In this document: positions 3,452 to 49,337 of the stretch, one piece after another | Layout: every line of letters starts with the position of its first letter | Numbering within the stretch: the stretch's first letter is position 1 | IMG/VR virus record: IMGVR_UViG_3300020122_000466 | Location: 1 to 50,093 of that record | Reading direction: 5' to 3' (one strand) | Source: a virus | Taxonomy: Duplodnaviria > Caudoviricetes | DNA length: 50,093 nucleotides | The notes under the pieces: generated by a model | The model's database searches: none | What the model was told of the DNA's origin: nothing | The model's input: the letters and a program-made list of their open reading frames with translations, nothing else | Position numbers and translations under genes: made by a program

Positions 3452-3453
3452 AC

Positions 3454-4248
3454 ATGTACTCCGCTGAAACCGTCCAATCCTTCCTCAACCGAGCCAGACT
3501 ACGGCTCGATCAGGAACTGGATAACCAAACCAACTTCTGGTCCGATGCCGAAATGCTGGAGTACATGAACGAGGGCATGCGAGAAGTCTGGCAGAGTGTC
3601 CGTGAAAATCACCAAAACTGGTTCATGCGCCAGGTTACCAGCCGAGATGGGGTGCTCACCATTGGGAGTAAGAAGTATGATACTCAACTACTACAGTTGG
3701 TCTCTGGTCGCACACGCTTGTTACTTCCACCTGATTTCTATGAATTGACTCTCCTTGAGGGGCTTAGGCCCACCGTGAGTGCGCTCGCTGATCTGAACAA
3801 CCCCTTCTTCCCTCAAGTGGTCTTTGAATACGCCAATATCACGCAGCATGCCTTCCGTAATCGGATCGTGGATACCGTCACCCAAGGGATCAGGCGCTAT
3901 CGCTATGACATCATCTTTGGCCCTGAAGGCCCCTACATCTATGTGGCCCCCAACCTGAGCGTAGTGGAGACCATTGATACCCAGATCGCCTACGTGAGCA
4001 TGCCCCAAGAGCTACCCTTCCAAGGCTCCTTTGAAGGCACGGGGTTCACCGGGCTGATGGTTGACGCAGTGCTCGCTTACACCACTTATGCGGCCGTCAA
4101 GAAGGAAGATCTCACTGAGAACTTGGCCACCTTCAAGGAACATTGGCGCATCAAGCAGGAATTGTGCTCGCGGGCAGCGGGACCCAAGCAAACCCGAGAT
4201 GTAGAGACGGTAGAGAATAGTTATATCTACCAGGAAGAAGATATCTGA
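3454..4248 (+). CDS. Head-tail adaptor / tail tubular protein A-like
   Basis: Start moved to ATG 3454; N-terminal helical motif FLNRARLRLDQ...FWSDAEMLEYMNEG typical of phage adaptor proteins. Confidence 0.7.
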   Translation: MYSAETVQSFLNRARLRLDQELDNQTNFWSDAEMLEYMNEGMREVWQSVRENHQNWFMRQVTSRDGVLTIGSKKYDTQLLQLVSGRTRLLLPPDFYELTLLEGLRPTVSALADLNNPFFPQVVFEYANITQHAFRNRIVDTVTQGIRRYRYDIIFGPEGPYIYVAPNLSVVETIDTQIAYVSMPQELPFQGSFEGTGFTGLMVDAVLAYTTYAAVKKEDLTENLATFKEHWRIKQELCSRAAGPKQTRDVETVENSYIYQEEDI

Positions 4249-7552: not shown

Positions 7553-9283
7553 GTGGGCCGCATCCTGCGCATCGGAGTGGATACCGTTACCAACTATACC
7601 CTGTTGGCGACGAGTGCGTATGATGCGGGAAATCCGGCTGCCACTACGAGCCCGTGGCCCAACAGCGCTGCCATGGATCAATTGTTCACTCAAGCGAGTC
7701 CCACTGAGGTGAGTGCGCAAGGGGCCCTCGTCACCTTTAGTCGCTTCCCCGATAGCTACAGCGGCGCCCAAGTCAAACTCCATCCCACTTATGATGTGAG
7801 CACCAATGAAAACCCCTTCTTTGAGATGTGGGTGCATGACAGCGTGGCGCTCACCTGGACCCTGCGCGCTTCCATCCAACTCAGTAACCCCTTTGTCGGG
7901 ATCGCGAGTGGCGCGCGAAAGGTGCTGGACTTCACCTTCTTCCCCTTCCTCCGTCACATCGACATGGTGTGGCTCACCCTCAATCCTGGTGTGGTGGGGG
8001 CGCCCACTGTGCAGTTCGATGCCATCCAGCTTTTTGGGCAGTGTGAGGGGGCCCTCCGTAGTGGGAGTGGGCCTGGTGGTATTCAATACACCTGTGACCC
8101 CTCCAAAGCCGATCCCACGGCCATCCCTCCTATCGTCTATACTGGCTTCAAGGTGATCTATTCGAGTACTCCTCCTTTCATCACTCATGTGCCCTGTGAT
8201 GACTTTGCCGGTGATCCGGGCTGTGCCTTCCCCGACCTCTGCAATCCCGCGAGTATTGCGGTCTATCGAGAGTGTCTCCGTGGGATTGGCGATGGAGGAA
8301 CGAGTCTCAACAACTTTGACGGATGGTTCACACTAAATAACGCACTAATCACGAGTAACTGTAATGGGAATACGAACACCGCACTCCCTGATCCCCCACC
8401 TGTGAAGGCGCCCAAACTTCCCCCGGTGGATTTTTGTGATCCAACCTCGATTGACGCGCATCGTGCCGCTATCGCGGGGGATGCGGATTTGCTCGCGAGT
8501 TTTAACGCACTCATTGATACCCTCACGGAGGCGGGGTTTTTCACCTTGGTGTGCCCCCCCGCAGACCCTCCCGCCACCTATGTGGACCCAGTGACCTTAC
8601 AACCTGCTGCTGATCCCACTGACCAGCCCGTGCGCCCCTTTCATGCGGGCCCCGGTGGGGATCCTGCGCCCAATCCTCCTGTGCAAAAGAGTGTGCCCCC
8701 CAAGGCGCCCGGTACTGGAGGTGGTGGGCAGCAAGAGTTCATCGCCTTCTTTTTCCCTGGAAATATTACCTACAACATTCCTGTTCCAGGCTCGACACCA
8801 CAACAACTCCTTGAATTTCTTGTGAATAGTGGGCCACCTGAACTACTTGCTGCATGGAATGCTCGGGATCAAATTGTCAATGTGCCGAATTTCACGTTTC
8901 CCACTCCACGTCGCGTGCAATTGACTTTTACAGGCTTAGTGAGTGGTACAGTGGTCGGCGTTCGGGTCATGCAGTTTGACCCAAATGGGCCCTTCACCGC
9001 AGAAACCCTTACTACTCTCTTTTCTGGTGCGATTCAAACTACCTGTGTAGTCAATACTAGTGCAGGAACCTTTGGAACTCCTCATCCAACACTAACAGAT
9101 CCCTTCTACGTACTCTTTCGAGATGGTACGTCCACCACCCCTCTCTTACGTTTAGCCTCAGATAATACCATTACTTGCGCAATGCCTGGCGGTGGAGGTT
9201 TCCAAGGAATTTTTGTGGATGTGCGGGCCACTCCTCCCGCAGGTACTGGGGTGGTGATAACAGTTGTGGCGAGCGTGGTGTAA
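7553..9283 (+). CDS. Putative tail/appendage protein with Cys-containing internal repeat and Pro-rich linkers
   Basis: 576 aa; beta-rich ends, duplicated DxCxPxSI..R helix unit. Confidence 0.6.
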   Translation: MGRILRIGVDTVTNYTLLATSAYDAGNPAATTSPWPNSAAMDQLFTQASPTEVSAQGALVTFSRFPDSYSGAQVKLHPTYDVSTNENPFFEMWVHDSVALTWTLRASIQLSNPFVGIASGARKVLDFTFFPFLRHIDMVWLTLNPGVVGAPTVQFDAIQLFGQCEGALRSGSGPGGIQYTCDPSKADPTAIPPIVYTGFKVIYSSTPPFITHVPCDDFAGDPGCAFPDLCNPASIAVYRECLRGIGDGGTSLNNFDGWFTLNNALITSNCNGNTNTALPDPPPVKAPKLPPVDFCDPTSIDAHRAAIAGDADLLASFNALIDTLTEAGFFTLVCPPADPPATYVDPVTLQPAADPTDQPVRPFHAGPGGDPAPNPPVQKSVPPKAPGTGGGGQQEFIAFFFPGNITYNIPVPGSTPQQLLEFLVNSGPPELLAAWNARDQIVNVPNFTFPTPRRVQLTFTGLVSGTVVGVRVMQFDPNGPFTAETLTTLFSGAIQTTCVVNTSAGTFGTPHPTLTDPFYVLFRDGTSTTPLLRLASDNTITCAMPGGGGFQGIFVDVRATPPAGTGVVITVVASVV

Positions 9284-9966: not shown

Positions 9967-10409
9967 TGGCCATCAACCATCGCGATGAGGTGCGCACTGC
10001 GCGCCGGATCCTCAACAATAAGGCCACGACGCTGGGCATCACCATGGACAGCGAGCGCCAGCAACCTGGCGCCAACCAACGCACCCTCTCCTTTCAAGCG
10101 CTCAAGTTAGTTAATGATGCCACCCCTCGTGCCGACCGCGAGCAACTCCAGCTTGATGATCCCCCTGCTGGCGCCTTCAACGGGGGGAACACCGCCTTCA
10201 CCCTCTCGCGTCCCGTCACAGGCCTAAACATTCACGTGATTTGGGGGGATAGCGCCACCCCCCAAACCCTCCCGCTCATCAAATCCAACACCAACCCTCC
10301 CACCACAGGGGAGTTCTTCTTCGATCCGGGCGACCCCACCCACATTGTGGTTGGAAACCCCCCGCTTGCGACTGATAGACTGATCGCCATCTACCGAGTC
10401 GATCAATAG
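9966..10409 (+). CDS. Putative tail-associated protein
   Basis: 147 aa; GAFNGGNTAFTL motif common in phage tail structural modules. Confidence 0.55.
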   Translation: MAINHRDEVRTARRILNNKATTLGITMDSERQQPGANQRTLSFQALKLVNDATPRADREQLQLDDPPAGAFNGGNTAFTLSRPVTGLNIHVIWGDSATPQTLPLIKSNTNPPTTGEFFFDPGDPTHIVVGNPPLATDRLIAIYRVDQ

Positions 10410-10418
10410 GAGTATGCC

Positions 10419-11402
10419 ATGGCACTCTTTCAAGGTGGTCCCCTCATCCAAGGTAGCAACACTGGGGGTGGGTTTGGTGGCACTGGCCAACTGGGCTCCA
10501 TTTTCAGCCAGTTCTTGAAGGCACCCAACGCGCCCATCAGGCCTGCCCAAGTGGGCCTCCCTTCACCCGGGGATTATGGGACCCCTGGGACCGCACCCAC
10601 CATCGCGGATCCCTCCAAAGGGAACTATGGCCTGGATCCCACCGATAAGGCGAACGCGCAACGGGGGATTGAGGAAGCGGCAGCCAACGCTGCTGAAGCC
10701 CATTTTGGGTTCGATAACCCCATGAAAACGGGAGCTTTCGCCACCCTCATGAACCAAGCGAATGAGTTGACGGGGGGTGCGCAACAAGCGGCTGCCATGC
10801 AAGCGAAGGATGCCGCGCAGCGCCGGGGCTATGCAGGGGGATTTGAGGATAGCTCCCGTTCAGCTTCCATCGACAAAATGAATGCCCTCGCCACCGCAGG
10901 GTTCGCGGGCGCTGATTCCATCCGCAAAACTGAAGGGGATATGTATGGGAAGGCCATTGGCGCCTTCACTGCCCTTCAAGACTCCTACAATCAAGCGGAA
11001 GCGGCTGGGAACACCGCCTTCGCCCATGATCTCACCACCACCCACATTGAGAATGCCGCCAATCAGTTGAAGACCATGGATCTAAACCAGCAACAACGCG
11101 CCCACTATGGGGATGCGCTCAATCAAGCCCGTCAGCTCCAAGCCCAGCTCAATGAGCAATTCAATAAAGATCAGATTGATAACTCTCGGTTCATTCAAGG
11201 GAATGCGCAGATTGCCGCCCAATTGCAGGCGACCATGGCCACCCTCGGTGAGAAAGCCCGTGAGTTCAACATCAGCGCTGGGCAGCAGCAGCAACAGTTT
11301 GGCGAGGGCCAGCGCGAGTTCAATGTGACCCACCAAGATGCGGTGGATCGCTCCCAGCGCCCCCGTGGGGGGCCTGGTGATCAATTCCTTGGCTTAGCGT
11401 AA
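10419..11402 (+). CDS. Putative internal virion/ejection protein
   Basis: 327 aa Gln/Ala/Gly-rich coiled coil, AAQRRGYAGG segment, repeated GExxREFN. Confidence 0.6.
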   Translation: MALFQGGPLIQGSNTGGGFGGTGQLGSIFSQFLKAPNAPIRPAQVGLPSPGDYGTPGTAPTIADPSKGNYGLDPTDKANAQRGIEEAAANAAEAHFGFDNPMKTGAFATLMNQANELTGGAQQAAAMQAKDAAQRRGYAGGFEDSSRSASIDKMNALATAGFAGADSIRKTEGDMYGKAIGAFTALQDSYNQAEAAGNTAFAHDLTTTHIENAANQLKTMDLNQQQRAHYGDALNQARQLQAQLNEQFNKDQIDNSRFIQGNAQIAAQLQATMATLGEKAREFNISAGQQQQQFGEGQREFNVTHQDAVDRSQRPRGGPGDQFLGLA

Positions 11403-11411
11403 GCCAGTGGT

Positions 11412-13235
11412 GTGCGCCCCCTTGCCCTCCTCTGTTTAGTCATTCTCCTCATCCTCGCGAGCCCAGCATGGGCAACGGTGGATGGTGGAGCTACCTACAC
11501 CACCTCTGGTGGGAGCACGAGTAGCACTGTCACCGTGGCCTGTGGGCAATCCAATTGCGTCGATAACTCTGCGCCCACTGACTCTACCTATTGGGGGCTG
11601 AGTGACACCCTGACGGATTGTGATGTCAGCGTCGAACTGAGCAATCCTCCTGGTGTAGGGAAGTCCTACACGGTGGCCGTTGCGTATGGCACCAGTGCCC
11701 TGCTCGCTGCGAGTGACTGCGTGATTGACGACAGTCTCATGTCGAGCGCGTCTGTTGGCAGCATTGCCAATACTCAACAAGAGTTAACAGGTAATGTCAC
11801 CTTATCAGGCAATGCGGCGGCGGGCGCCTGCATGAAACTTACCTTTGCACCAGTCAGTACACCCGCAACTGGGGTCGTACGCGCGACCCTCACTTGTCAC
11901 ACCACCGCCTCTGGCGCTGATGGCTTGATGGGGTTCAACACCGCTTCCACCTCAAGCTTTAGCTCTAGTGGTGGGTTCCTTGGGCCTGCGCAAACCGGCG
12001 CGACCGCTACACTTCGCAACTATTGGATCGCCCCACGAGATATCACCAAGTGTGCGGGGTCTCTCGCGATTTCCACCAATAACTTTAGTGGGAGTCCGCG
12101 CAAGTTCCAGTCACATGTCTCTTCCACTGCTCTTACTACTGCACAGAATTGCTTAGATATCGTCACCTACAATGATGTCGATCAGTGTAGTGTGGCGACA
12201 AACCAACGCTCCTGTAAGTTTACTTCTACGGCGCTCGCGATTACTGCCCATAAATGTTTCGATGTCAGCCTTGTTGTCCCTGCTAACGCAACCACAGCGC
12301 AAGTCGCCTCCTTCTCATGTACAACCGATGCCGCTGGCACACCACAAACTGGCGCAAATATCTATGCGTTCGCGGCGAATGAGACGAATACAGGGACCAC
12401 CTTTTGTGGCCTTAATTTTAATAATGGAGATCAGTGTGCCACGACCAATACCGATGCCACCACCTTCACCCTCGCCAAAGCTATCTCCACACTGCATGGA
12501 GGTGTAGCCCTCACGACTGCTCCGGATGGAGTGAAGACGATTGCGGTCGCGTTGCGCTGTTCGAGTGCTGCGGCCAGTTCCCAAACCTGTGCGGCTGCTA
12601 TTGCAGCGAGTTCTACGGACACCGCGCTTTGTACAATCGCGGCGGGCAATAAGAGTTGCTTTTGGACAGGTGTCGCGGGTTCGAGTCAAAAAGGGGCGTG
12701 TTGTACCTTTGTGCTGACACCATCCGCCGCCTTGGCTGTCGCGCCGGGTAATCTCACTCTAACGTTGGAAGCGGAGAATGGACCAGATACCACACCCACT
12801 CCTACTCTGACGCCGACGCCTACGCTGACTCCCACGCCGACTGTCACCCCAACCTCAACATTGACACCAACTCCAACGGTAACTCCGACCCCAACCCCTA
12901 CACGCACCCCTACGCCCACTTTGACCCCTACTCCGACAGTCACGGCGACCCTAACCCCAACGCCCACGGTGACAGCCGTGTTGACCGCCACGCCAACCCT
13001 CACGCCCACACCGACCGTGACCGCAACCTTAACCCCAACCCCGTCAGTCACGCGTACGCTCACTCCGACCCCTACACCCACTTCAACGCCAACGGTGACC
13101 CCAACCCGCACCGTCACGCCTACTGCCACCTGTCCCTTTCCCACCCCCTGTTTCTTTGGCAATAGCGTCTGTGTCGCCACCCCAACGCCAAGCATGACCG
13201 GGTTGACCCCCACTGCCACGCCCACGGTCCAATAA
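11412..13235 (+). CDS. Signal-peptide-bearing Cys-rich protein, three repeated beta domains plus Thr/Pro tail
   Basis: [21 protein letters not shown] signal peptide; many Cys; TP tract from about 12787. Confidence 0.75.
12787..13232 (+). repeat. Thr/Pro low-complexity coding repeat
   Basis: [13 protein letters not shown] units with varied codons. Confidence 0.85.
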
Positions 13236-13236
13236 G

Positions 13237-16200
13237 ATGAGCCGCGCCCGCACCCTCGTCATCCAACTGCTCACTTATGTGGTGTGGCTCGTCTTCCTTG
13301 GGGTGCTGGTGCACTGGGTGCTGAGCCCCATGGCCGCTGTGGGGGAAGTGATCACCCCCAGCGAGCTACAGGCACCAGGGCAGGTGCCCGGCCTGTTTGA
13401 CTGCCCCACCTATAACAAGAACGAGTTTAAGTGGCAGAACTTCTGTGGAGGGCCCACTGGCCCCGGCCAATGCTTCAGCCTCCCCTGTGTGAACAAGTTC
13501 TGCTTCCAACCCCGCCCCTGCGCCAGTGGCCAGTTTGCCTACGCGGTGGGGAAGAATGGGGATGCGATCTGTGCCCCTGTGATACAGGTGACGGCTACAG
13601 GGACCACCCCCACGGCAACACCAACCATTACGAGCACCGCTCCTACGGTGACCCCTACACCAACGGTAACCCCAACCTTCACCCCTCAACTCACGCCCAC
13701 ACCGACCGCAACTCCTACCGTGAATGTGTGTGTAGACATCCTCGCGTGTGTCACTCCCACACCAACGCCTACTGTTACGGTGACCCCAACCGCGACGAAG
13801 ACAGCCACCCCTACGGTCACCATCACCCCGACACCCACGATCACCGCAACCCCCACCGTCACCCCGACGCAGACTACAGTGGCCACGCCCACCACGGGCC
13901 CAGTGTTGGGCATCAGTGGGAATGATCTGGTCTTCACTTTCCAGAACTATGTAGAGTTATTAAGTAACTCTCTCTATATTAAGTTTGATGCCGCTGATCT
14001 TGGGAAACCTGCGGACATCATCCACATTGAGTTGATCCCGAGCGCCACTCCAACCCCCACACCCACTCCTACACGTACGGTCACCTTCACTCCTTCCCCT
14101 ACGGTGACCCCAACGAAGACCCTGATTGGCACCAGCACCCCTACGGTCAGCTCGACACCTGCGGCCACTCCCACCCCTACGTTTACGCCCAACACCGTGA
14201 GCATTCCCATCATGTTTGGGGTGTTCAATGCCTCCAATAGCATCACCCAGTTCTTCTCGTTGAATGGCTCATCGAGCGCGACCGAGAATAATCTCCGCCA
14301 TGCGCTCCAACTCGACACCTTCAGTGGCGCGGCCACCGAGTTCTGGTGTGAGGTGGGCACCGCTCCCGGTACGGGCACCAAGTGGACCTTCACCCTACGC
14401 GTGAACAACGCGGATAGTGCGATGAGCTGCGAGATCGCCAACGCCGACACCACCTGCCGGAACACGGTGCCGGTGGTTCCAGTCAACGATCAAGATACCA
14501 TTGATATTTCGAGTGTGCCTTTTCAGAGCCCAGTAGGAGCAGCGGGCACCAAGTGTGGATTCACCCTTCGGTTGAAGGTGCAGCAGGCCACCCCCACACC
14601 CAGTCCGACGGTTACCCCTACACTGACGCCAACACCGACAGTAACGGCGACGAAAACCGTTACCCCTACGATCACCGCTACCCCAACAGTGTCGGCAACG
14701 GCCACCTTGCGCCCTACGGCCACCCTCACCGTGCGCCCTACGGCCACCGCTGTAGGGACCACTGGCACCCCACTACCCACTCCTGCGATTGTGGTCCCTC
14801 TCCTCGAATCCAGTGGGTACATTTTCAGTGCCACCAACACCCAATTCATGTGGGGCACCTCTGACACTGATCTAAGCAGTGGGCATCATGTGGTTTCCAC
14901 TTCTGAGGCCCTTGTTCAAGCGCAGATTGCGCTCGCGGGCACGACCGGCACCCTCACCGATCTGACCTGTAACATGCCCCTCGGGGCGCCAGGCGTTGGG
15001 GGCCGCTTTACCATGACCGTGCGCATCAATGGGGTCTCCTCCACCTTGGTGTGTGCCATTGCTAATCTGGACACCACCTGCACCTCCGATGTGTTCGCGG
15101 AGAAGTCCGTGGTGGATAGCGATAAGCTCGCGATTCAGATTGTGCCGAGTGCGGTTAATAGCGCCAATCTGCCCTTGTTGATTAACTGTGGAGTGGCGCT
15201 GAAGGTCGCGAATCCCACGCCCACGGTCACCACGAGTCCCACACCCACGGTGACGGTGACGCCAACAGCTACCCTTACGCCAACACTAACAGTGACGCCC
15301 ACAGTCACCGCAACTCCAACGGTTACTCTAACCGCAACCCCCACCGTGACGCCTACACGGAGCCCAACCCCTACATTGACACCCACGAAGACGGTCACTC
15401 CTACCCTAACGATTGGGGTGACCCCTACAGGGCCTGCAGCGACGCGTACCGTCACGCCATCCCCAACCCCAACTGTGACGGCGACGAAGACTGCGACGGC
15501 CACCCGCTCGCCTACTCCTAGCTTGACCCCTACGCCTGAGAGCAGCCCGGTGGCACCCACCTACATGGCGCTCCCTGCAGGCAATGGTGCAGTGGGGGTG
15601 CTCTACGCTAACAATAACCAGGATGGCGCCACCATCAGTCGCCACTTGAAGTGCAGCGCGTTCATCCCCCAATACACTTTGACGAACATCCAAACCATTC
15701 AGTTCCGTATTGGGCTTGGAGGCACCACCGTCAATAACAACTGTGGCATCGCCATCTACGCGCAGCAGTCCACAGACCTTGATGAATATCAGGTAGCGAC
15801 GACGGGGATGAAGAGCTGTATGGACATGTCCCAGACATGGACCCAATCCTTTGCCGCAGTCTCTGTTCCTCCCTGTACAAGTGATAGCGATTGCACTCCG
15901 TTGTCTGGGACTGGACCGATGCTCTGCCAACCCAACTGTTATGATCCTAGTGGAGTTGCCCCTCCAAATAATCTTACATATGTGCGGACAATCTCCCCAT
16001 TAAATGGTCCTTTCACCCTCTATCAAGGTGTGAAGTATTTCTATTGCTGGACCGCTGTGGGCACCTCTAGTAGCAACCAGTTCTTCGTGAGCCCCGCTAC
16101 CTCTGGTTTTGAATTGCTTGGTAATCCCAACGGTACGAGTGCTACGGATGTCAACAACAATGGTGAGGCTACCAATCTTGCGACTACAACCAATATGCCA

Positions 16201-16275
16201 GGCCAGCTCGCAGGGATTGCCGCCACTGCTGGCACCCCGCCAGCTAGCTCAGCCCTTGTGGTGTTAAGTCAATGA
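13237..16275 (+). CDS. Large exported/anchored Cys-rich fibre-like protein with four Thr/Pro tracts
   Basis: Hydrophobic N-terminus; [18 protein letters not shown] fibre-type motif; two APG...C.IA..DTTC domains; TP tracts near 13600-13900, 14040-14190, 14590-14785, 15210-15540. Confidence 0.75.
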
Positions 16276-18518
16276 AAATACTTCTATTCCTTCTATTGCT
16301 ACTCATCCCCACCACAAGTTGGGCGACGGCACCCTTCCTCCATCCACCAGGGACGGGTAACAACTATGCCCCCTGCTTTCCTGGTGCTGATCATGGTTTG
16401 TACTTTGGCAACACCTGCCTCAATGACTTCAGTCAAGGCGGCCCTGGGGAGTTTTTCTTCGTCAACATGGATCTGGCGATGGCGGCGGAGCAATACACCC
16501 AAACGGGTTCCACGGGCATTGTAAACTATCGGCTGAATGTAGATCTGAGTAAGGCGACCCCTAATCCGACCAACGATGCCCAAATGAACATCTTTGGGTT
16601 TCAGTCGCTGTTGACTGGGGGAGCCACGAACCTTCCGGACACCCGCCCATTCTTCCTTGATTTCACCTATAACAATGCGACCACTGATGGGCATGTAGGG
16701 GGCGTGGTGCCGAGCATGTTTGCCATTCGCTCGACGATCACGACGGGGCGCTTAGCGGGCCTCACGGGGGTGCATATTGAGAGTCCGGTGTATCGTTTTG
16801 TGCAATGTTTAGCGGGCGCAAATGCGGGGGTGGCGTGCACCGATGATAGTGAGTGTCCTGGATCATTCTGTTCAAGTCCTGAACTGGCGTGTGTGGGAGG
16901 GCCGAATCAGGGTGCTTCGTGTAGCATCGATCAACAAGGAGGCATCGCGGATTCCATCTGCCCCTCCAGTTTCTGTGGAAAAGCCTTCGTCAATAGCCTC
17001 CCCGCAGGCCTTATCATTGAGCAACAAGCCATCAGTCCAGCCGCAGGTGAGCGGGGGTTTGGAATCAAAACCCTAGGCTCCACCGATGATTCCTACTTTC
17101 TTGGGCGCATGGCCATCGGAGCATTCCTCAATGAAGGAGGAGACACTACTCTTACTGCTGCCCCCAACGCGCATTTTCTCGTAGAGGGTGGGATTGCGCC
17201 TGGAGATGTACCTGTGGTCAATAGCACCCGCCCCCTCCCGTATCTTCAATATTTCAGTAATCGCACCGAACTCGTCCCCGCCATCGGGAATGTAGTGGTG
17301 CAGGATCTCGCGGTGAACGCGAACTATGGCACGACCACCACCCTTGCGGATCCGCATGTACTGGGTGTGGAACAGAGCACGGTCGCAGGCTCTGCGGTCG
17401 GCGCCATCGCCACTGAGGGCATGGTCAATGTGAACTGTGATGCGACCGCCATCACCCGTGGAGATTATCTGATCACCTCCACCACCGCAGGGTTGTGCAC
17501 CACCAATGGCACCACTCCGCCTCCACCTGGCGCACTCCTTGGGCGCGCCATCACCTCCAAGGGCGCTGGGGTTGGAACAGTGGATGTGTTGCTGAATGTT
17601 GGGGGGGTGAGTGTGCCCACCACTCCAACCGCCACGGTGACTGCAACCCCTACTCCTACGATTACCGTGACACCGACTCCTACGGTGACCGTCACCCCTA
17701 CCGCTACCTACCCTGTATATATTCTTAACACTCCCACGCGCACCCCAACTGTCACGCCAACACCCACTTCAACAGCAACCCTTACCCTTGGTCCTACCCC
17801 AACTGGACCCGCTGCCACACGGACTGCCACCCCTTCACCCACACCCACCAGCACCCTCTCTCCCACACCAAGCCCAAGTCCTACGGCTCCGGTAGAGATT
17901 GGCACTAGCCTTCGTATTGATGGGCAATATCTCTTAGTGCGTGGGGAAAACCAGTTCGCCCTCCTCCAACAAGACACCTATGCCGCCCCTGGAGGGGTGC
18001 TAATTCAAGCAGCTAATGGACTGACCCCGCTGGGTAATGTTGGGAATAATGGTGGAGCGGTGACGCTCCAAAGTGGTGGAGGGACTGGGGTAGCAACTAG
18101 TGGGGCTATCAGCCTCTTGTGTGGCACCCCTGGTTCAAACTGGGTTGGGGGAGACATTGACCTCAAGCCCTCGAAAGGTACGATCACTCCCTTTGGGAAT
18201 CGCATCTACTTTGATAATGCGGCACACCTCGTTGCAAAAGGTGGCAGTGTGCCCACCCTCTCTAGCTGTGGGACTAGTCCGAGTGTGGTCGTTGGCACGG
18301 ATAGCGCGGGCAGTTTCACGGTAGGCTCCGTGGCCACCGGGTGCGTCCTCACCTTCAACCAAACCTGGATCAACGCCCCGCATTGCTTCGCGAACGATCA
18401 TACCTCGGTGATTGCCGTCGGGACCACCACGACGACCACCACCATTACCTTCGACACCGCCACCCTCGCCGCCATTTCGAGCCAAGCCCTTGATTACTTC
18501 TGTATTGGAAATGAATAA
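16272..18518 (+). CDS. Signal-peptide-bearing fibre/receptor-binding-like protein
   Basis: [18 protein letters not shown]; two C.GG.N.G..C...CP.SFC repeats; GMVNV..ITRGDYL..LLGRA module; TP tract about 17616-17890; C-terminal SSCGTSPS..GTDSAG..LTF..APHC module seen in phage fibres. Confidence 0.75.
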   Translation: MKILLFLLLLLIPTTSWATAPFLHPPGTGNNYAPCFPGADHGLYFGNTCLNDFSQGGPGEFFFVNMDLAMAAEQYTQTGSTGIVNYRLNVDLSKATPNPTNDAQMNIFGFQSLLTGGATNLPDTRPFFLDFTYNNATTDGHVGGVVPSMFAIRSTITTGRLAGLTGVHIESPVYRFVQCLAGANAGVACTDDSECPGSFCSSPELACVGGPNQGASCSIDQQGGIADSICPSSFCGKAFVNSLPAGLIIEQQAISPAAGERGFGIKTLGSTDDSYFLGRMAIGAFLNEGGDTTLTAAPNAHFLVEGGIAPGDVPVVNSTRPLPYLQYFSNRTELVPAIGNVVVQDLAVNANYGTTTTLADPHVLGVEQSTVAGSAVGAIATEGMVNVNCDATAITRGDYLITSTTAGLCTTNGTTPPPPGALLGRAITSKGAGVGTVDVLLNVGGVSVPTTPTATVTATPTPTITVTPTPTVTVTPTATYPVYILNTPTRTPTVTPTPTSTATLTLGPTPTGPAATRTATPSPTPTSTLSPTPSPSPTAPVEIGTSLRIDGQYLLVRGENQFALLQQDTYAAPGGVLIQAANGLTPLGNVGNNGGAVTLQSGGGTGVATSGAISLLCGTPGSNWVGGDIDLKPSKGTITPFGNRIYFDNAAHLVAKGGSVPTLSSCGTSPSVVVGTDSAGSFTVGSVATGCVLTFNQTWINAPHCFANDHTSVIAVGTTTTTTTITFDTATLAAISSQALDYFCIGNE

Positions 18519-19306
18519 TGTATAGATATATATTCATTCTATTACTTCTTCCTACTGTGGGCTGGGCCGCCCCCCCAGGCCAAGACACCCTCATCCCCAA
18601 TGCCAAGCGCTTTGGGGATGCGCCCTCCCACCTCTGGCAAACTCAACTCGCTCCTCACCACTATCGATTGTGTTACAACACCGCCCCAGATGGGGGCGGC
18701 ACACGGGAGGATGCCAGCTCTCTGAGTGATGTGCAGTGTGTGGACTTCAATGGGGAGCCCGCTACCAATACCCTGTGCTTAGTAGAAGGGCATGGCATTG
18801 ATAGCGCGGATGGGGCCCGAAACCTACTCTGTGTAGATGTGGTGCGCACCAGTTTTGGCCCTGATCTAGCGCTTGGAGGGGGTGAGGATGCCCGCCTTCT
18901 GAGTCCCTCAGCGAAGGGCACCAGTCCTGAGCGCCAAACCCAAGCGTATGAGCTGCTCTTTCGTACCGAGGACACCCGTATCGCCCTCCAAGCGCCCACT
19001 GCCCTCTGTTTAGGGGTGACCCCCTGGCACGTCCACGCCTGCACCGCCAGTGACGGGGCGCTGGGCACCTTCATTGGTTATGACACCGTGGAAATTGGGT
19101 GGGTGGCAGAAACCCTCGTCTATGCCAGCACCCGGGGGATTGTGCGTGGGGCGCCCTGCACCGGCACCATCAACACCGGAGACCCGGTGACCTTGGGCCA
19201 TACCCTCTTCACCACAGGGCTCTTGGTGCCCCCCTCGTCTACCCCGCTGGTGGGTCATGCCTTGACCCCCTGTGATGGTGCTACCTTAGACTTCCTTCAG
19301 CAATGA
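18518..19306 (+). CDS. Signal-peptide-bearing protein
   Basis: MYRYIFILLLLPTVGWA; C-terminal GIV..INTGDPV..LVGHAL module like that in the previous gene. Confidence 0.7.
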   Translation: MYRYIFILLLLPTVGWAAPPGQDTLIPNAKRFGDAPSHLWQTQLAPHHYRLCYNTAPDGGGTREDASSLSDVQCVDFNGEPATNTLCLVEGHGIDSADGARNLLCVDVVRTSFGPDLALGGGEDARLLSPSAKGTSPERQTQAYELLFRTEDTRIALQAPTALCLGVTPWHVHACTASDGALGTFIGYDTVEIGWVAETLVYASTRGIVRGAPCTGTINTGDPVTLGHTLFTTGLLVPPSSTPLVGHALTPCDGATLDFLQQ

Positions 19307-19350: not shown

Positions 19351-19698
19351 ATGCCCAAAGCTCTCGCGGACTGGTGGAACGATCCCACCCACAAAGCGCT
19401 CATCGCGCGCTTCCTCATCTTCATTTTTGGCGCGCTCGTCAAAGCAGGCAAAATTCCCACGGGGTATGAGGGGCTCGGGGATTTCATTGGACCCTTCATC
19501 ATGGGCAGTGCGCTGCTTGTGCCGGCGGGGCAGATGAATGCGAGTGGGGTGGTGACGCACACCACCACTACCACCACGAAGGTGGAAGCGCTCGAACCCC
19601 CCAAGGTGGCGCCCATCGTTGTGCCCGTGAACGCACCTACCCTCCAGCCCACAGTGGTGCGGGGGCCCACCATGCCTCAAACCACTCCCCATCCCTAA
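19351..19698 (+). CDS. Holin-like two-TM membrane protein
   Basis: Two hydrophobic segments and a Thr/Pro-rich tail; upstream of endolysin. Confidence 0.5.
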   Translation: MPKALADWWNDPTHKALIARFLIFIFGALVKAGKIPTGYEGLGDFIGPFIMGSALLVPAGQMNASGVVTHTTTTTTKVEALEPPKVAPIVVPVNAPTLQPTVVRGPTMPQTTPHP

Positions 19699-19931
19699 TG
19701 GACGCCGCTACCATCACCGTCCTGATGCAAAGTATCACCACCCTCGGGGTGGCCTTCATCACCTACATGGGTATCCGGTTCACCAGCACCATTAAGAAAC
19801 TGGAGACCAACACGAATTCAATCAAAGATGCGCTGGTGGAGGTCACCCGCAAGTCCAGTTTTGCCGAAGGGATTCTGGAGGAGAAGCGCCGTCGTCGGGA
19901 ACTTCCCGACGACACAAAGGAGGACAAATGA
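19698..19931 (+). CDS. Membrane-anchored coiled-coil protein (lysis-associated?)
   Basis: N-terminal TM then charged helix. Confidence 0.55.
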   Translation: MDAATITVLMQSITTLGVAFITYMGIRFTSTIKKLETNTNSIKDALVEVTRKSSFAEGILEEKRRRRELPDDTKEDK

Positions 19932-20152
19932 GTCTCATTGCCTTTCTCATCACACTAATTGTGGTGGTATGCATCATCTATTGTGTCCGCTTATTGCTAC
20001 CGATGCTGGGCCTCCCTGAGCCCATCAACACCGTGATCATGATCATCATTGGGCTCATCTGCTTGCTCTGGTTACTCAACTCGTTAGGTGTGGTGGGGAG
20101 TGGCCCATTCTTGCGTATAGGAGGGGGCAATGGCCAAGTGTTTGCTCGTTAG
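19928..20152 (+). CDS. Two-TM membrane protein (Thivi_2564-like)
   Basis: MSLIAFLITLIVV..LPEPINTVI..LLWLL pattern. Confidence 0.6.
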   Translation: MSLIAFLITLIVVVCIIYCVRLLLPMLGLPEPINTVIMIIIGLICLLWLLNSLGVVGSGPFLRIGGGNGQVFAR

Positions 20153-20366
20153 CATCTTCGCCACCCTCCTCGTGGGATGCTGCGCGGATATGAAACTGGG
20201 CATCATGGCCTATGGAAAGAGCGTGGAGCAGCAAGCGGGCACCAGCCAGCTCCTCCTCCAGCGCTGCCGGAAGGGGGATGACCCCGCGTGTAGCGCCCTC
20301 AACCAAAGTCTGATTACGCAGCAGCAAGCAGCCCGTCTGCTCCAAGGGTTGGCTGCTAAACCTTAG
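20130..20366 (+). CDS. Small lipoprotein (spanin candidate)
   Basis: Lipobox-like LLVGC after a hydrophobic stretch; GGAGG RBS. Confidence 0.55.
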   Translation: MAKCLLVSIFATLLVGCCADMKLGIMAYGKSVEQQAGTSQLLLQRCRKGDDPACSALNQSLITQQQAARLLQGLAAKP

Positions 20367-20380
20367 TGAAAGGAGTATAT

Positions 20381-20521
20381 ATGAAGTATATCTATTATAG
20401 TATTCTACTTAGTCTGGTGATCGCCGGGTGCACTACCATCTGCAAGATTCCTGGCGTGAGCATGCTTGGCGTTCCTTGTCCATCTCCCACCGCCACCTTG
20501 CTTCCACCTATCCTGAGCTAA
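20381..20521 (+). CDS. 46-aa Pro-rich lipoprotein (not in ORF track)
   Basis: AAGGAG RBS; MKYIYYSILLSLVIAGCTTICKIPG...PPILS with IAGC lipobox. Confidence 0.6.
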   Translation: MKYIYYSILLSLVIAGCTTICKIPGVSMLGVPCPSPTATLLPPILS

Positions 20522-20524
20522 GTC

Positions 20525-20902
20525 ATGGCTGCCCTCAATACTGGAGCACTGCTTCAGCAACTGTGGGATTGGGCGCGCAAACTCGCTGCGGATCCCAAGA
20601 ACTCTAACCTGTTGGATAGTGTGGTGGCGTTCCTGAAGGGGCTGCAACGCAGTGACATCACCGCTGCCATCGCGGATATCCAAGCGAAACAGGCAGCGTT
20701 GGTGGGCACTGGCTCCCTTGCAGACCTCTCCACCCCAAACTTGATCCTCTACGCCACCTTGGGGGATGCCGCCGTCATGCTCACCGCTACTGATCTGGCA
20801 GGGGCAGCGGCAGCGGATGTGCAAAGCTGGTTTGTGGAGCACGCCATTCCTGTGTTGGAAGACTTGGCACGGCTCGCCCTTCCATTACTCGTGATGCTGT
20901 AA
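20525..20902 (+). CDS. Hypothetical helical protein in lysis region
   Basis: 125 aa, Ala/Leu-rich, hydrophobic C-terminus. Confidence 0.6.
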   Translation: MAALNTGALLQQLWDWARKLAADPKNSNLLDSVVAFLKGLQRSDITAAIADIQAKQAALVGTGSLADLSTPNLILYATLGDAAVMLTATDLAGAAAADVQSWFVEHAIPVLEDLARLALPLLVML

Positions 20903-20911
20903 GGAGTCCCT

Positions 20912-21103
20912 ATGGCCACCTTTTCAAGTGTACTCGACCTTGCCCACAAACTCTTTGATGCGCACGCAGCAAGTGCGGATGAAGATGCTCCTGCTCCGCA
21001 ATCGACACCAAAGAAGGACCCAACCTATGGCCTGCATCCAGGTGAAGGCCAACAAATTAAGGACCAACATCTGTTGGATGATCCCAACGATCCCAGTAAA
21101 TGA
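20912..21103 (+). CDS. Small disordered protein with MATFSSV N-terminus
   Basis: 63 aa, AAGGAG RBS. Confidence 0.6.
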   Translation: MATFSSVLDLAHKLFDAHAASADEDAPAPQSTPKKDPTYGLHPGEGQQIKDQHLLDDPNDPSK

Positions 21104-21447
21104 GCGCTCCTCCTTCCAGCCTCCAGCAACACTTTGCCCTGACTCTCGCCCAATTCATCGTGCGCATCAATGCGCTGGGGTGGAAGGTCACATTGGGGGA
21201 AGCCTATCGACCCCCTGAGTTAGCGCAGCTCTATGCGCAGCAAGGGCGAGGGATTGCCAATAGCCTGCACACCGTGCGTTTAGCCATCGATCTCAATATC
21301 TTTGATCACGAGAATAACTATCTAAGTGACACCAAGGATCTCGAAACCGTTGGGGCGATTTGGGAAGCGCAGGACCCCTTAGCCGCGTGGGGGGGTCGAT
21401 TTGGTGATGGAAACCACTTTAGCTTCGGATATGAGGGACGCCGCTGA
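21100..21447 (+). CDS. Endolysin, M15-family Zn peptidase
   Basis: EAYR, SLH..RLAIDL, WGGRF.DGNHFS motifs. Confidence 0.88.
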   Translation: MSAPPSSLQQHFALTLAQFIVRINALGWKVTLGEAYRPPELAQLYAQQGRGIANSLHTVRLAIDLNIFDHENNYLSDTKDLETVGAIWEAQDPLAAWGGRFGDGNHFSFGYEGRR

Positions 21448-21662
21448 TGGCCACATTTAAGAAACTCGCTGGGGCTCCTCCTTCTGATGATACGGATGAC
21501 CCCATTGCCCAGTCCTTCCGCAACATCGGGGCGCCTGCACCTCCCAGTGCGGATTACACTGCTAACGCCAACCGCACCGCCCCTAAGCCTGGCGGGATGC
21601 CCACACGCAAGCCTAATGAGACACTTGAGGACTATGCCGCACGCATTGCAGGAGGTGGGTGA
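21447..21662 (+). CDS. Small disordered protein with MATFKKLA N-terminus
   Basis: 71 aa, TGATG coupling on both sides. Confidence 0.65.
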   Translation: MATFKKLAGAPPSDDTDDPIAQSFRNIGAPAPPSADYTANANRTAPKPGGMPTRKPNETLEDYAARIAGGG

Positions 21663-23062
21663 TGGCCGCTGGAGATGGATTTGCCAACCTGTTGGAAGCG
21701 GATGATCCAACCTACAAACCTCCAGATGAGGTTGCCCCGACAGGGAGTGAAGGGGGGCCTGGGTCGCTCAGTGAGGACATCGCGACTGGCAAGCAGGTGG
21801 CGGCTGCGAGCAAAGTGAAGGGGTTCGCGGGGTTTGACCGCCCACTCCAAGCGCAGGAGTTGATGCACAGTGGAGAGGAAGCCCAAGCCCTCCAGGCGAA
21901 TGACGCCCGCCGTCATGCGCTCGCGGAAAAGGAGCGGGCCTCCATCAACTTAGGTGAGGCGGCAGCCCGCCAAGATGATCTCCGTCGCGCTGAGTTCGGG
22001 ACCGCTGATCCCCTGAAGGCTGCCCAGTTGAAGGCCACTGGGGTGTTTGATGCGGACTTTGGGGAGCGTTTCAAAGCAGACCCTGAAGGCAGTGCAGCGG
22101 CAGCGGCTCGTGCCCTCAGCATCTTAGGGAAAGGAGGCATGCAGGATGCCCCTACTGGTCCAAGTGGCCCCGAGGCCCTCACGGGAGGTCGCAAATACAG
22201 TGTAGGCACTGGGCAGCATGGGGAACCCTACTTTACCAACCTCTCCCCAAGTGAGTTGAAGGAGGAAGCGCATCAGCGCAGTGCCCTCACCGGGGAGTCC
22301 TATCAACCCAGCGTCACTGATCTGCACCGCATTCCAGGGATGCAAGATCAACCCGCTGGAGCCCCTGGCACTTCTTCAACTGACCCCGCAGATATTCTGT
22401 TTCAAGGGAAACTCACCAAAGTGCAGGAGATCATTGGTCAACCCGCGCGGGATATTAAGCAATTAGAGGCGAAACAGGATCTCAAGAATCGTATGATTCA
22501 AGTGGGGCATGATCAAGGGCTCGATGCTGCGCGCAGTCAGTTGGTGGATGAGATGCGGAAGAACCCCTTACTTGGGATCGCGGCCTTTAAGGACGCGGAC
22601 AATACCCTCCTCAAGTATGGTCAGCACACCGCCCGAGAGATTAAGAATAAGCACTTGGATCCCACCCTCTACTTCCCTTCACAGAAGGCCAATGTGGTGC
22701 CAGGTACCGATGCCAATCCAGCGGAGCAAGCGAGTGTGACCAATCCTGGTGGCCGCTTGAACGACACCACCTTTCAGCAGGAACAACAGCAGCATGTCGC
22801 TAATCAGACTACCCAGCAGATTGATCAAGCAGCGGCGAAGGAACAACCCACCACTGCGCAATATGCGCGTGGAGGGGTGAAGTCTGTGGCACCCACCCAA
22901 CTTGACCCTGGGGACCCTACTGCTGGGGCAGGGCCCCGCTCAGATCTTGGCATCCTTGGGGGCCTGATTAAGGAGAAGTTGAAGCGCAAGCAACGGGAAG
23001 CTGACGCGCGTGGCTATGACCCCAACGCCCAATCCGACATCGCGAAACTGTTTGGATTCTAA
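21659..23062 (+). CDS. Putative internal virion/ejection protein
   Basis: 467 aa (ATG 21662 likely), Ala/Gln/Gly-rich, no Cys or Trp in the translation, precedes the largest ORF. Confidence 0.55.
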   Translation: MMAAGDGFANLLEADDPTYKPPDEVAPTGSEGGPGSLSEDIATGKQVAAASKVKGFAGFDRPLQAQELMHSGEEAQALQANDARRHALAEKERASINLGEAAARQDDLRRAEFGTADPLKAAQLKATGVFDADFGERFKADPEGSAAAAARALSILGKGGMQDAPTGPSGPEALTGGRKYSVGTGQHGEPYFTNLSPSELKEEAHQRSALTGESYQPSVTDLHRIPGMQDQPAGAPGTSSTDPADILFQGKLTKVQEIIGQPARDIKQLEAKQDLKNRMIQVGHDQGLDAARSQLVDEMRKNPLLGIAAFKDADNTLLKYGQHTAREIKNKHLDPTLYFPSQKANVVPGTDANPAEQASVTNPGGRLNDTTFQQEQQQHVANQTTQQIDQAAAKEQPTTAQYARGGVKSVAPTQLDPGDPTAGAGPRSDLGILGGLIKEKLKRKQREADARGYDPNAQSDIAKLFGF

Positions 23063-49273: not shown

Positions 49274-49337
49274 GTCCGCAGAACTCATCGCTGCCTTCGA
49301 CTGCGTGGTCGGTAAACACGCTGAAGGAGACGGGTTC

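Follow-up and report, generated by a model that had tools for sequence, protein, structure and literature searches.

Four signal-bearing, cysteine-rich genes between the tail and lysis modules of an uncultured podovirus-like phage: a putative exported host-recognition cassette

Results

The window, that is, the whole stretch of 50,093 nucleotides analysed here, is the near-complete (96%) genome of an uncultured, podovirus-like phage; its source setting is soil. Four late genes, g1 to g4, lie on the + strand at 11412-19306 with tail genes on one side and a lysis cassette on the other (Table 1), exactly as the initial annotation had placed them. Genes on the upstream side encode the major capsid protein, an SU10-like adaptor, virion proteins and, by a weak tblastn match, a P22 gp10-like protein, while those downstream encode TM proteins, two lipobox proteins and an M15 endolysin; gene content points to a tailed particle with a portal- and terminase-packaged capsid. 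The two lipobox proteins may be spanins, judging from their lipoboxes, small size and Pro content. The start of g1 falls 9 nt past the upstream gene, a single base separates g1 from g2, and g2/g3 and g3/g4 overlap by 4 nt and 1 nt, respectively, the four products amounting to 2,629 aa, or 16% of the genome. Eight promoter-like sites occur in the cassette, compared with 5.4 ± 2.5 in shuffled sequences, and no + strand terminator was found within it. Because of this close packing and the lack of separate promoter or terminator signals, g1-g4 are probably co-transcribed with the virion and lysis genes.

Table 1 Positions of the features discussed; a slash marks the predicted cleavage site
Feature	Position	Strand	Basis or remark
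Virion-module protein, 576 aa, without signal	7553..9283	+	sister-phage comparison
g1, 607 aa	11412..13235	+	ORF, homologues, alignment
g1 signal peptide, aa 1-21, ...ASPAWA/T	11412..11474	+	sequence and heuristic
g2, 1012 aa	13237..16275	+	ORF, homologues
g2 leader or signal-anchor, aa 1-34	13237..13338	+	sequence and heuristic
g3, 748 aa	16272..18518	+	ORF, homologues
g3 signal peptide, aa 1-18, ...PTTSWA/T	16272..16325	+	kept in homologues
g3 C-terminal domain, ~95 aa, 4 conserved Cys, unannotated family	18225..18515	+	profile search, model
g4, 262 aa	18518..19306	+	signal peptide aa 1-17, ...PTVGWA/A
Lysis cassette	19351..21447	+	immediately 3' of g4
TM proteins	19351-20152		lysis cassette
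Two lipobox proteins, spanin-like	20130-20366 and 20366-20521		lysis cassette
M15 endolysin	21100-21447		lysis cassette
Fifth exported-type protein, 126 aa	48116..48496	+	between portal and capsid genes

The proteins are modular. Behind its signal peptide, g1 has a Cys-rich body of ~430 aa, in which three similar PG-x-G-K/C-containing segments can be seen by eye, a Thr/Pro tract (aa 454-581) and a conserved C-terminal TCPFPTPC motif. In g2 a hydrophobic leader or anchor precedes a Cys-rich N-module of ~75 aa; the rest of the protein comprises Thr/Pro tracts, five or six in number, a beta-rich domain with 3-4 Cys that by eye is present twice (about aa 330-450 and aa 535-655) and, at the C terminus, another Cys-rich domain. 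The signal peptide of g3 is followed by a ~425-aa body that includes a Cys-rich insert and, at aa 363-443, a weakly decoration-like stretch; next come a Thr/Pro tract (aa 446-540), a beta region rich in Gly and a C-terminal 4-Cys knob, whereas g4, which begins MYRYIFILLLLPTVGWA with Ala after the predicted cleavage site, carries 8 Cys and no Thr/Pro tract. Cysteine makes up 74 of the 2014 residues of g1-g4 outside the Thr/Pro tracts (3.67%) compared with 85 of 9143 (0.93%) in 27 other large genes, an enrichment of about fourfold, and the tracts account for 24%, 33%, 17% and 0% of g1, g2, g3 and g4, so the original description of Cys-rich proteins, three with long Thr/Pro tracts, holds. Long linkers and Cys-rich modules of this sort are a usual feature of secreted bacterial proteins and not of classical trimeric fibres. 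The fifth exported-type protein of the window likewise combines a signal peptide (...PSALA/Q) with a 50-aa Thr/Pro tract and a small Cys-containing tail.

Each of the four leaders is, by sequence, of the canonical Sec/SPase-I type, with a positive n-region, an h-region without charged residues and, at -3/-1, small residues. Our own rule, an uncharged hydrophobic run plus small residues at -3/-1, flagged 4/4 targets and 7/69 other ORFs of a greedy gene list, and the export call comes from this home-made heuristic, not from SignalP or experiment; the N-terminal sequences agree with the Sec-type signal or anchor first proposed for each gene. The seven other flagged ORFs are four lysis-cassette membrane proteins or lipoproteins, the Thr/Pro-linker protein at 48116-48496 and two weak cases; five of the seven are expected envelope proteins. 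The N terminus of g2 consists of MSRAR, a 24-residue hydrophobic run and SPMAA/V, and the length of the run suggests a signal-anchor. The same N-module, 44-45% identical in the sister phages G002 and G003, stands behind ordinary cleavable leaders in G002 (L028:5822-8467) and in another homologue, P0007.

Across homologues the leaders drift in sequence yet remain hydrophobic. They are kept in g3 homologues P0002, P0003 and P0004 (86, 81 and 29% identity), in 5/6 members of the g1 family, in homologues of the g2 N-module and in the 86%-identical homologue of g4, and are also present in P0006 and P0007. The g1 homologues comprise P0194, P0195 and proteins of three sister phages (G001-G003), and their alignment (A3) contains six invariant Cys and an invariant D24-G25 just past the cleavage site; the leader, found in all three sister phages, always lies just N-terminal to this DG motif. 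The exception is P0195, which by its start as called begins at the mature N terminus without a leader, so that the conservation of signals proposed as a check was seen in most homologues but not in all. The g4 homologue P0196 is 86% identical overall with a far more diverged, still hydrophobic leader (about 11/16 aligned positions differ, by our count), and a leader that diverges faster than the rest of its protein is usual for signal peptides. Variant positions seen in a soil run within g3 are mostly third codon positions of the g3 frame, by our own arithmetic. Taken by sequence, the N-termini look like real, conserved export signals, from which we infer actual export and cleavage of g1-g4.

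The cassette is far more variable than the capsid. The capsid proteins of the sister phages are 77-84% identical, whereas identity drops to 25-30% for g1 (tblastn), similarity to g2 is confined to the first ~110 aa, and nothing there matches g3 or g4; a g1-type gene occupies the same position in 3/3 sister phages. Modules are also shuffled, P0007 joining a g2-type N-module to a g3-type C-terminal part. This pattern resembles the variability of receptor-binding genes. Signal-bearing fibre homologues also occur inside the tail modules of unrelated phages: a myovirus contig carries an 821-aa signal-bearing member between gp25-like and gp6/J-like baseplate wedge genes, and podovirus MW202554.1, whose capsid is 37.6% identical, encodes a protein that starts MIVLVLLFLLLSISSADA and bears a tail-collar domain for which 486 phage records contain matching minor tail or tail fibre proteins, its gene directly following that of a 'phage stabilization protein'. 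On a further contig (L007), five consecutive signal-bearing Cys-rich genes are followed by small TM genes.

Searches with g1-g4 found no known virion or fibre family in Pfam or NCBIfam, and in PHROGs only one family of unknown function and one weak decoration match (g3 aa 363-443 to phrog_122 'head decoration', E 5e-4). Pfam gave no match at E <= 0.1, so that of the fibre- or cement-like modules first suspected, cement is only weakly indicated, while a fibre likeness is suggested by the C-terminal knob of g3. The knob belongs to a family of 2,905 representative protein clusters at E <= 1e-3. Among the best 150 of these 2,905, the match reaches the protein end or within about 10 residues of it in 150/150, the four Cys are conserved in 134, and a signal-like N terminus is found in 125 (4/114 for an internal control segment); of the remaining 25, ten do not begin with Met, which may reflect fragments or alternative starts. 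The AF2 model of the domain (pLDDT 85.8) is an all-beta sandwich, whose top fold matches are the cyanophage Pam1 tailspike receptor-binding domain (Z 7.2) and the lactococcal phage bIL170 receptor-binding head (Z 6.8), followed by AP22 gp53 and the R2 pyocin fibre. The best matches are thus phage receptor-binding heads and tailspike C-domains, at middling Z values of 6-7 that are common by chance; Foldseek gave no match to the model at E <= 1e-3, and the profile matched no PDB chain of any kind. The structural comparison suggested at the outset hence returned a beta-sandwich that only weakly resembles such heads. The domain is predicted to form a homotrimer, scoring 0.89 against 0.00 for the best of three controls, with runs agreeing in at least 82% of contacts and a partner pLDDT of at least 85; in calibration 20/30 solved homomers and 1/23 monomers reached the mark, which is rough here (own alignment, three copies). 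Since g3 ends in this predicted trimeric knob and a signal peptide precedes a true tail-collar domain in a related podovirus, the reading of g1-g4 as fibre- or adhesin-like is supported.

Discussion

Export signals are unexpected for tailed-phage fibres, which are thought to be built inside the cell, and we found no description in the literature of an exported fibre-like cassette in a tailed phage. One way to retain the textbook route of cytoplasmic assembly is to suppose that the leaders stay uncleaved and serve as a tether, timing device or handle, with the proteins in the cytoplasm or held at the cytoplasmic face of the membrane for usual tail assembly. The anchor-like run of g2 and the leaderless minority of the family fit this idea, but it is rendered improbable by the same n-region, h-region and -3/-1 layout in all four targets, in homologues from different phage types and in most of the best 150 knob-bearing proteins. 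The Cys enrichment and the four conserved knob Cys further argue for folding in an oxidising compartment.

We consider it similarly improbable that g1-g4 are a moron, host-derived surface-protein genes that benefit a lysogen or were acquired by chance and are unrelated to the mechanics of infection. The Thr/Pro linkers and Cys-rich modules do look bacterial, the weak database matches to g3 are bacterial surface proteins that have only the linker in common with it, and two MAG contigs (L010 and L011) carry members of the knob family in a non-phage context. Against this stand the constant position of the g1-type gene, the lack of promoter or terminator signals around the cassette, and the rarity of the domain in sampled genomes of the two phyla in which it occurred (only 1/101 and 2/101, seeds included). 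In addition, the phage encodes its own family A DNA polymerase and helicase, and no integrase was found among the 10 largest minus-strand ORFs.

We tentatively propose, at a probability of about 0.4, that g1-g4 form a hypervariable host-recognition cassette whose exported proteins join the virion. They would be modular fibre or adhesin proteins that depend on disulfides and are moved over the inner membrane late in infection by the Sec system of the host, the leader being cut at the AXA site. The Cys-rich domains would fold in the oxidising envelope, the Thr/Pro tracts would act as extended spacers, and at least g3 would end in a trimeric knob of the kind phages use for receptor binding. The exported proteins could meet head-tail particles assembled in the cytoplasm only once the holin opens the inner membrane, in the interval before the spanins break the outer membrane, when cytoplasm and periplasm would be one compartment. 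Docking might use the conserved end modules, namely the mature N terminus and C-terminal CPFPTPC motif of g1 and the Cys-rich N-module of g2, and the docked proteins would leave the cell as virion appendages. Here we infer disulfides, virion docking and a diderm host. We know of no tailed phage that adds exported proteins to its virions, assembly being cytoplasmic. Speaking against a place in the virion are the searches that found no known virion or fibre family, the middling fold scores, the signal-less candidates considered below and the leaderless P0195.

Of the two outcomes that the initial annotation had left side by side, appendages maturing in the envelope and remodelling of the host surface, the conserved signals and fibre likeness agree with the former, and the latter is a live, if somewhat unlikely, rival. 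It holds that the proteins are exported but never enter the virion, acting instead on the envelope or debris of the infected cell, possibly by masking or destroying the phage's own receptor, excluding superinfection, removing outer layers to aid release or rendering infected cells sticky, while the virion uses a signal-less receptor-binding protein. Exported phage proteins beside fibre genes are already known (lambda Lom, T5 Llp, phi80 Cor), export is clearly selected for in the family, and hypervariability would follow because a receptor mask must co-vary with host receptors. The virion-module protein encoded 2 kb upstream is, by sequence, the best candidate for a receptor-binding protein of the conventional, cytoplasmic kind: across sister phages, conservation over the N-terminal ~400 aa gives way to divergence in the C-terminal ~170 aa (identity in G002, 48% over aa 3-404; in G001, 37% over aa 1-351; in G003, 29% over aa 2-510), and the protein has a weak PHROG match to 'virion structural protein' and no match among phage records. 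The following gene (~227 aa here, 465 aa for the homologue in G002) is likewise a candidate. The first impression that no conventional fibre is present thus stands in that no recognisable signal-less fibre family was found in the 96%-complete genome, but must allow for this protein. Moreover, G002 and MW202554.1 pair signal-less beta-propeller-like and beta-helix-like proteins with signal-bearing ones, and on L007 one N-terminal module occurs with and without a leader in adjacent genes. Weighing against action on the envelope are the sheer size of the cassette, known receptor masks having about 60-80 aa, its translational packing into the late virion operon, the homologues within baseplate and tail gene blocks, and the conserved terminal modules and trimeric knob, which resemble parts of attached fibres. 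Domain searches also found no enzyme domain in g1-g4.

Conventional podovirus receptor-binding proteins and tailspikes (Pam1 7EEA, bIL170 2FSD, AP22 gp53 4MTM, R2 pyocin 6CL6) resemble g1-g4 in lying behind the tail genes, in exchanging modules, in varying strongly between close relatives and in carrying a small C-terminal trimeric beta-sandwich, the last as predicted for g3 and with only the limited structural likeness described above. To our knowledge, signal peptides are absent from the known examples and structural disulfides are few. PblA and PblB of phage SM1 and pneumococcal PblB are reportedly tail-fibre-type proteins that end on the bacterial surface as adhesins, lacking signal peptides and reaching the surface after phage-mediated lysis, a route opposite to that proposed here. 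T5 Llp and phi80 Cor are exported proteins that are encoded next to the fibre genes and mask the phage's own receptor, and lambda Lom is an exported protein encoded beside the tail-fibre genes (PMC12309495). All are signal-bearing products of the fibre region acting in the envelope; however, each is a small outer-membrane protein or lipoprotein of a single domain, and some have their own expression in lysogens, in contrast to g1-g4, which are large, modular and fibre-like, have signals of the SPase-I rather than the lipoprotein type, and are translationally packed with late genes.

A parallel in layout is the mosaic adhesive trimer (MAT) fibre of Bdellovibrio, described as a signal peptide followed by a tail-fibre-like trimeric protein that is exported and acts outside the cytoplasm, with a conserved anchoring end and exchangeable adhesive tips (PMC10769870). 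A signal peptide, a predicted fibre-like trimer, a conserved end and exchangeable parts recur here, but MATs are chromosomal genes of a predatory bacterium rather than part of a phage late operon, conservation in MATs lies in a ~130-aa domain that directly follows the signal whereas the widespread part of g3 is C-terminal, and the passages on MATs considered here describe no Thr/Pro linkers like those of g1-g3 (PMC10769870). A further difference is that Pfam found no Peptidase_S74 domain in g1-g4, and no MAT entry is among the fold matches listed for the g3 C-domain.

A further precedent is g3p of the filamentous (Ff) phages, which binds the receptor and has a Sec signal, domains held by disulfide bonds, and flexible linkers of low complexity; it matures in the periplasm before joining the virion. 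No sequence similarity to g3p was found in g1-g4, and Ff virions assemble at and extrude through the envelope, which makes an exported receptor-binding protein a natural fit in their case, in contrast to the tailed particle considered here, whose capsid is assembled in the cytoplasm; the Sec signal, Cys domains, low-complexity linkers and proposed periplasmic maturation are common to both.

Genome and gene context

The four ORFs g1-g4, together referred to as the cassette, lie close-packed on the plus strand at the positions given in the table, within a linear IMG/VR virus record of 50,093 bp with a completeness rating of 96%. The closest deposited genome, sampled at a spring, belongs to an uncultured 'Podoviridae sp.' whose capsid protein is 37.6% identical, and cultured relatives fall below 26% capsid identity; other runs, labelled soil metagenome, contain near-identical pieces of the cassette, with no RNA data set among the runs listed. 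No integrase was present among the ten largest minus-strand ORFs of the window, and no tRNA was found in it. A membrane-containing virion was considered and dropped, since an HK97-type capsid protein, portal, terminase and adaptor are all present.

Features of the window discussed in the text (the arrow follows the residue at -1 of the putative cleavage site)
Feature	Position	Strand	Basis or remarks
Major capsid protein	184-1476		PHROG and Pfam scans
SU10-type adaptor	3334-4248		PHROG and Pfam scans
Virion protein	5032-6447		Weak likeness to P22 gp10 'stabilization' proteins
576-aa signal-less protein	7553-9283	+	11 Cys; repeated C-(N/D)-P-x-S-I motif
g1	11412-13235	+	n-region MR; AWA↓T
g2	13237-16275	+	n-region MSRAR; MAA↓V
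g3	16272-18518	+	n-region MK; SWA↓T
g4	18518-19306	+	n-region MYRY; GWA↓A
Small lipobox protein	20130-20366	+	Lipobox LLVGC
Small lipobox protein, adjacent	20366-20521	+	Lipobox VIAGC
M15 endolysin	21100-21447		PHROG and Pfam scans
467-aa and 1151-aa proteins	21659-26517	+	
Family A DNA polymerase and helicase-type ATPases		-	
Large terminase	42567-44510		PHROG and Pfam scans
Portal	45437-47536		PHROG and Pfam scans
Thr/Pro-linker protein	48116-48496	+	
ORF at the 3' end of the record	49305-50093	+	

The two lipobox proteins, the second of which is Pro-rich and about 30 aa long when mature, look like a spanin pair judging by their sequences, and taken together with the small M15 endolysin they suggest that the host is diderm and has a periplasm. 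The lysis genes are followed by two large proteins of 467 and 1151 aa, with zero Cys in 1,618 residues and no family match. Both are kept in G002, a sister phage, at identities of 36% and 47%, and the related podovirus MW202554.1 holds a parallel in a Cys-free protein of 1416 aa; an internal or ejection role is probable for them, in an odd place after the lysis genes. The last ORF of the record runs off its 3' end, right before the capsid gene on a circular map, and this may be where ~4% of the genome is missing, so that a gene could be out of view.

One explanation of the cassette would be a moron of the Lom, Llp or Cor type, that is, a small single-domain envelope protein, often equipped with a lipobox or a promoter of its own. 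This is improbable: the products of g1-g4 range from 262 to 1012 aa and are without a lipobox, and promoter-like sites within the cassette are no more than in shuffled sequence. A plus-strand terminator was likewise not found within the cassette.

Putative export signals

The initial annotation proposed that each of the four genes begins with a Sec-type signal or anchor, and the N-termini bear this out at the level of sequence, each combining a positively charged n-region, a hydrophobic run and small residues of the AXA type at -3/-1. The uncharged h-regions of g1, g3 and g4 measure 14, 10 and ~8 residues, against a norm of about 7-15 for Sec/SPase I substrates, and that of g2, at 24 residues, is anchor-like. 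Our own simple leader rule is positive for 4/4 of these genes vs 7/69 other ORFs, namely four in the lysis cassette, the Thr/Pro-linker protein and two weak cases. The Thr/Pro-linker protein, encoded between the portal and capsid genes, is a fifth small protein (126 aa) of exported type, in which a signal peptide is followed by 50 aa of Thr/Pro tract and a tail that contains Cys; large signal-bearing, lectin-like proteins occupy the same genome position in MW202554.1.

Conservation of the leaders was largely, though not universally, observed. Homologues of g1-g4 mostly keep them, with similar AXA-type sites, whereas two related proteins, P0195 and P0005, are without one. In P0194, which is 45% identical to g1, and in the g1-type gene of each of three sister phages, the leader ends just before an invariant Asp-Gly, which is exactly the point at which P0195, a g1 homologue taken at its database start, begins. 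In both the G002 homologue and the homologous protein P0007, the Cys-rich N-terminal module of g2 is preceded by an ordinary cleavable leader. Equivalent leaders are found at the start of g3 homologues with 86, 81 and 29% identity, and two proteins that share only the C-terminal part of g3 also begin with leaders, which P0005 does not. The only homologue of g4 is 86% identical overall, with a leader that is far more diverged yet still hydrophobic. By this comparison of sequences the leaders are a conserved trait rather than an accident of annotation, and mis-called starts were dropped as an explanation because the preceding genes reach right up to the leaders, which are also kept in homologues.

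Since the leaders are canonical, are retained over deep divergence and accompany domains rich in conserved Cys, it is very likely that g1-g4 are exported. That the leaders do not export is improbable.

Composition and family membership

The Cys-richness and the long Thr/Pro tracts of the initial annotation were both recovered. Outside the linkers, 3.67% of residues in g1-g4 are Cys (74/2014) vs 0.93% (85/9143) in 27 other large genes, and the tracts, which are Thr/Pro-rich, of low complexity and placed between folded domains in the manner of mucin-like or PT linkers, account for 24% of g1, 33% of g2 and 17% of g3 (g4, 0%). Opposite-strand ORFs over the tracts, such as 12686-13225, were rejected as their Gly/Val mirror images. 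GC skew is strongly negative at 12000-16000 (-0.19 to -0.22), and contigs from other metagenome runs are interrupted at the tracts; these are assembly breaks and not findings. All-against-all BLAST of g1-g4 with the 126-aa and 576-aa proteins gave no match at 1e-2; internal repeats in g1 and g2 were recognised by eye only.

By sequence, g1-g4 belong to no known fibre or tailspike family in Pfam (no matches at E <= 0.1), NCBIfam (no matches), PHROGs or tblastn. PHROGs returned only phrog_15511, of unknown function, and a weak phrog_122, and tblastn against 50,697 phage records returned nothing for g1 aa 1-453, g2 aa 780-1012, g3 aa 19-443, g3 aa 540-748 or g4. The cement-like module suggested at first was weakly supported at best, as PF09956 (Phage_cement_2) matched neither g3 nor g4 in Pfam at E <= 0.1; its only traces are the phrog_122 match (E 5e-4 on g3 aa 363-443) and a lead from the Atlas with a score of 0.79. 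All look-alikes in the ESM Atlas for g4 and g3 aa 19-445 score <0.9, and the Peptidase_G2, PTL_trimer and Acidobacteriota rows among them are leads only. The full-length AlphaFold2 model of g3 (7 sequences; mean pLDDT 29.8) was unusable, and we make no claim on the fold of its N-terminal body.

A C-terminal domain family with signal-like N-termini

The last ~95 residues of g3 contain four conserved Cys and represent a large family named in no library, the C-domain or knob. A full HMMER scan at E <= 1e-3 found it in 2,905 representative clusters, and in all of the best 150 the match reaches the protein end or comes within about 10 residues of it. A signal-like N-terminus is present in 125/150 of these best members vs 4/114 for an internal control segment, and exactly four Cys fall within the last 100 residues in 134/150. 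Among the 25/150 without a leader, ten start with a residue other than Met and two, P0060 and P0144, have signals apparently narrowly under the threshold.

The AlphaFold2 model of the domain is all-beta (pLDDT 85.8), and a trimer is predicted for three copies, scoring 0.89 vs 0.00 for the best control on a calibration that is only rough. Foldseek gave nothing at E <= 1e-3, and the top hits of an exhaustive aligner are phage receptor-binding heads and tailspike C-domains (Pam1, 7.2; bIL170, 6.8; AP22 gp53, K64-1 depolymerase and R2 pyocin fibre, 6.3), with Z values of 6.0-7.2 that are common by the tool's own warning.

A single-domain scan returned 4 MAG loci. Two MAG contigs carry the domain in a cellular context, and within the two phyla concerned it occurs in 1/101 and 2/101 sampled genomes, seeds included. 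A metagenome scan with A3, our alignment of the g1 family, caught 2 irrelevant loci only, through the Thr/Pro linker.

Variability and fibre homologues in other phages

Like fibre genes, the cassette lies in the tail module and varies among closely related phages. Capsid identity with the sister phages is 77-84% and most other virion proteins lie at 43-63%; g1 stands at 25-30% by tblastn, the match to g2 covers only the ~110 N-terminal residues, and neither g3 nor g4 has a counterpart in these phages. A g1-type gene always follows the homologue of 10419-11402. On these sequence comparisons the cassette behaves like a host-range module. Within g3, a strain variant co-occurring in run X5 differs over 16809-17579 mostly at third codon positions (own arithmetic), which fits purifying selection on the g3 frame.

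Signal-like N-termini are found in 6/6 viral loci with the C-domain, in L006 and L008 inside a longer ORF. The myovirus contig L004 (sheath, hub and wedge genes) encodes an 821-aa member flanked by a gp25-like and a gp6/J-like wedge gene, and a second signal-bearing protein that matches 'tail fiber protein' PHROGs; the first 400 aa of the 821-aa protein have no tblastn match in phage records. The contig L007 has five signal-bearing genes in a row, and also adjacent paralogues (10275-10766 and 10750-12144) with a common 45-aa N-terminal module (51% identity, E 2e-9); this lies at the very N-terminus in one and right behind a 19-aa signal peptide in the other, indicating that fibre-like paralogues gain or lose leaders. 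Three putative appendage proteins of MW202554.1 begin with leaders, and one of them has a tail-collar domain matching minor tail or tail fibre proteins in 486 phage records. Its beta-helix protein is without a leader and has no homologue in the window. On podovirus-like as well as myovirus-like contigs, fibre homologues carry a conserved, selected export signal.

Possible roles as virion appendages or host-surface proteins

We tentatively propose the following mechanism. Head and tail would assemble in the cytoplasm, and the receptor-binding appendages would leave by Sec to be oxidised, and perhaps glycosylated, in the envelope; they would join particles only after the holin has made cytoplasm and periplasm a single compartment. 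Docking of the exported proteins on virions after this merger is our favoured reading, at a probability of roughly 40%, because of the fibre homologues in tail modules, the late-operon packing, the receptor-binding-like variability and the conserved end modules. It is conceivable, if doubtful, that such two-compartment assembly with envelope-matured appendages is a route shared by many uncultured phages with the 4-Cys knob family.

The main rival, which we consider somewhat less likely, is that g1-g4 act on the host surface and that the virion receptor-binding protein is signal-less, the best candidate being the 576-aa protein. Among sister phages the N-terminal two thirds of this candidate are conserved and its C-terminal ~170 aa divergent. 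The gene after it encodes ~227 aa here vs 465 aa, about twice as many, in G002. The candidate has no tblastn match in phage records and no similarity to the 'stabilization protein' of MW202554.1. Signal-bearing fibre homologues in tail modules speak for docking on the virion.

Either way, an unannotated domain family of 2,905 clusters has been identified that is nearly always accompanied by an export signal, at least among its best 150 members. Should g1-g4 reach the virion, a second assembly route would exist, which would explain how phages get disulfide-stabilised, possibly glycosylated adhesins, and both host-range prediction and the virion-protein classifiers that discard signal-bearing proteins would need revision. 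Should they stay off it, they would represent surface effectors that phages make from parts of fibres, a large class and a new one.

Comparison with known systems

Tailed-phage assembly is wholly cytoplasmic in textbook accounts, and signal peptides are taken as the mark of non-structural accessory proteins. Fibres exported by Sec are not described for tailed phages in the accessible portions of the literature searched. Closest in location are Lom, Llp and Cor. In function, one of the closest systems is g3p of filamentous phages, which is exported by Sec. Although neither of their tip types, S74 or the solved NS74, was recognised here (no Peptidase_S74 in Pfam, and no PDB chain at E <= 1 with A2, our profile of the g3 C-domain), the MAT fibres of Bdellovibrio, in which a signal peptide precedes a conserved N-terminal domain of ~130 aa, are also among the closest in function, being exported tail-fibre-like trimers of a bacterium (PMC10769870).
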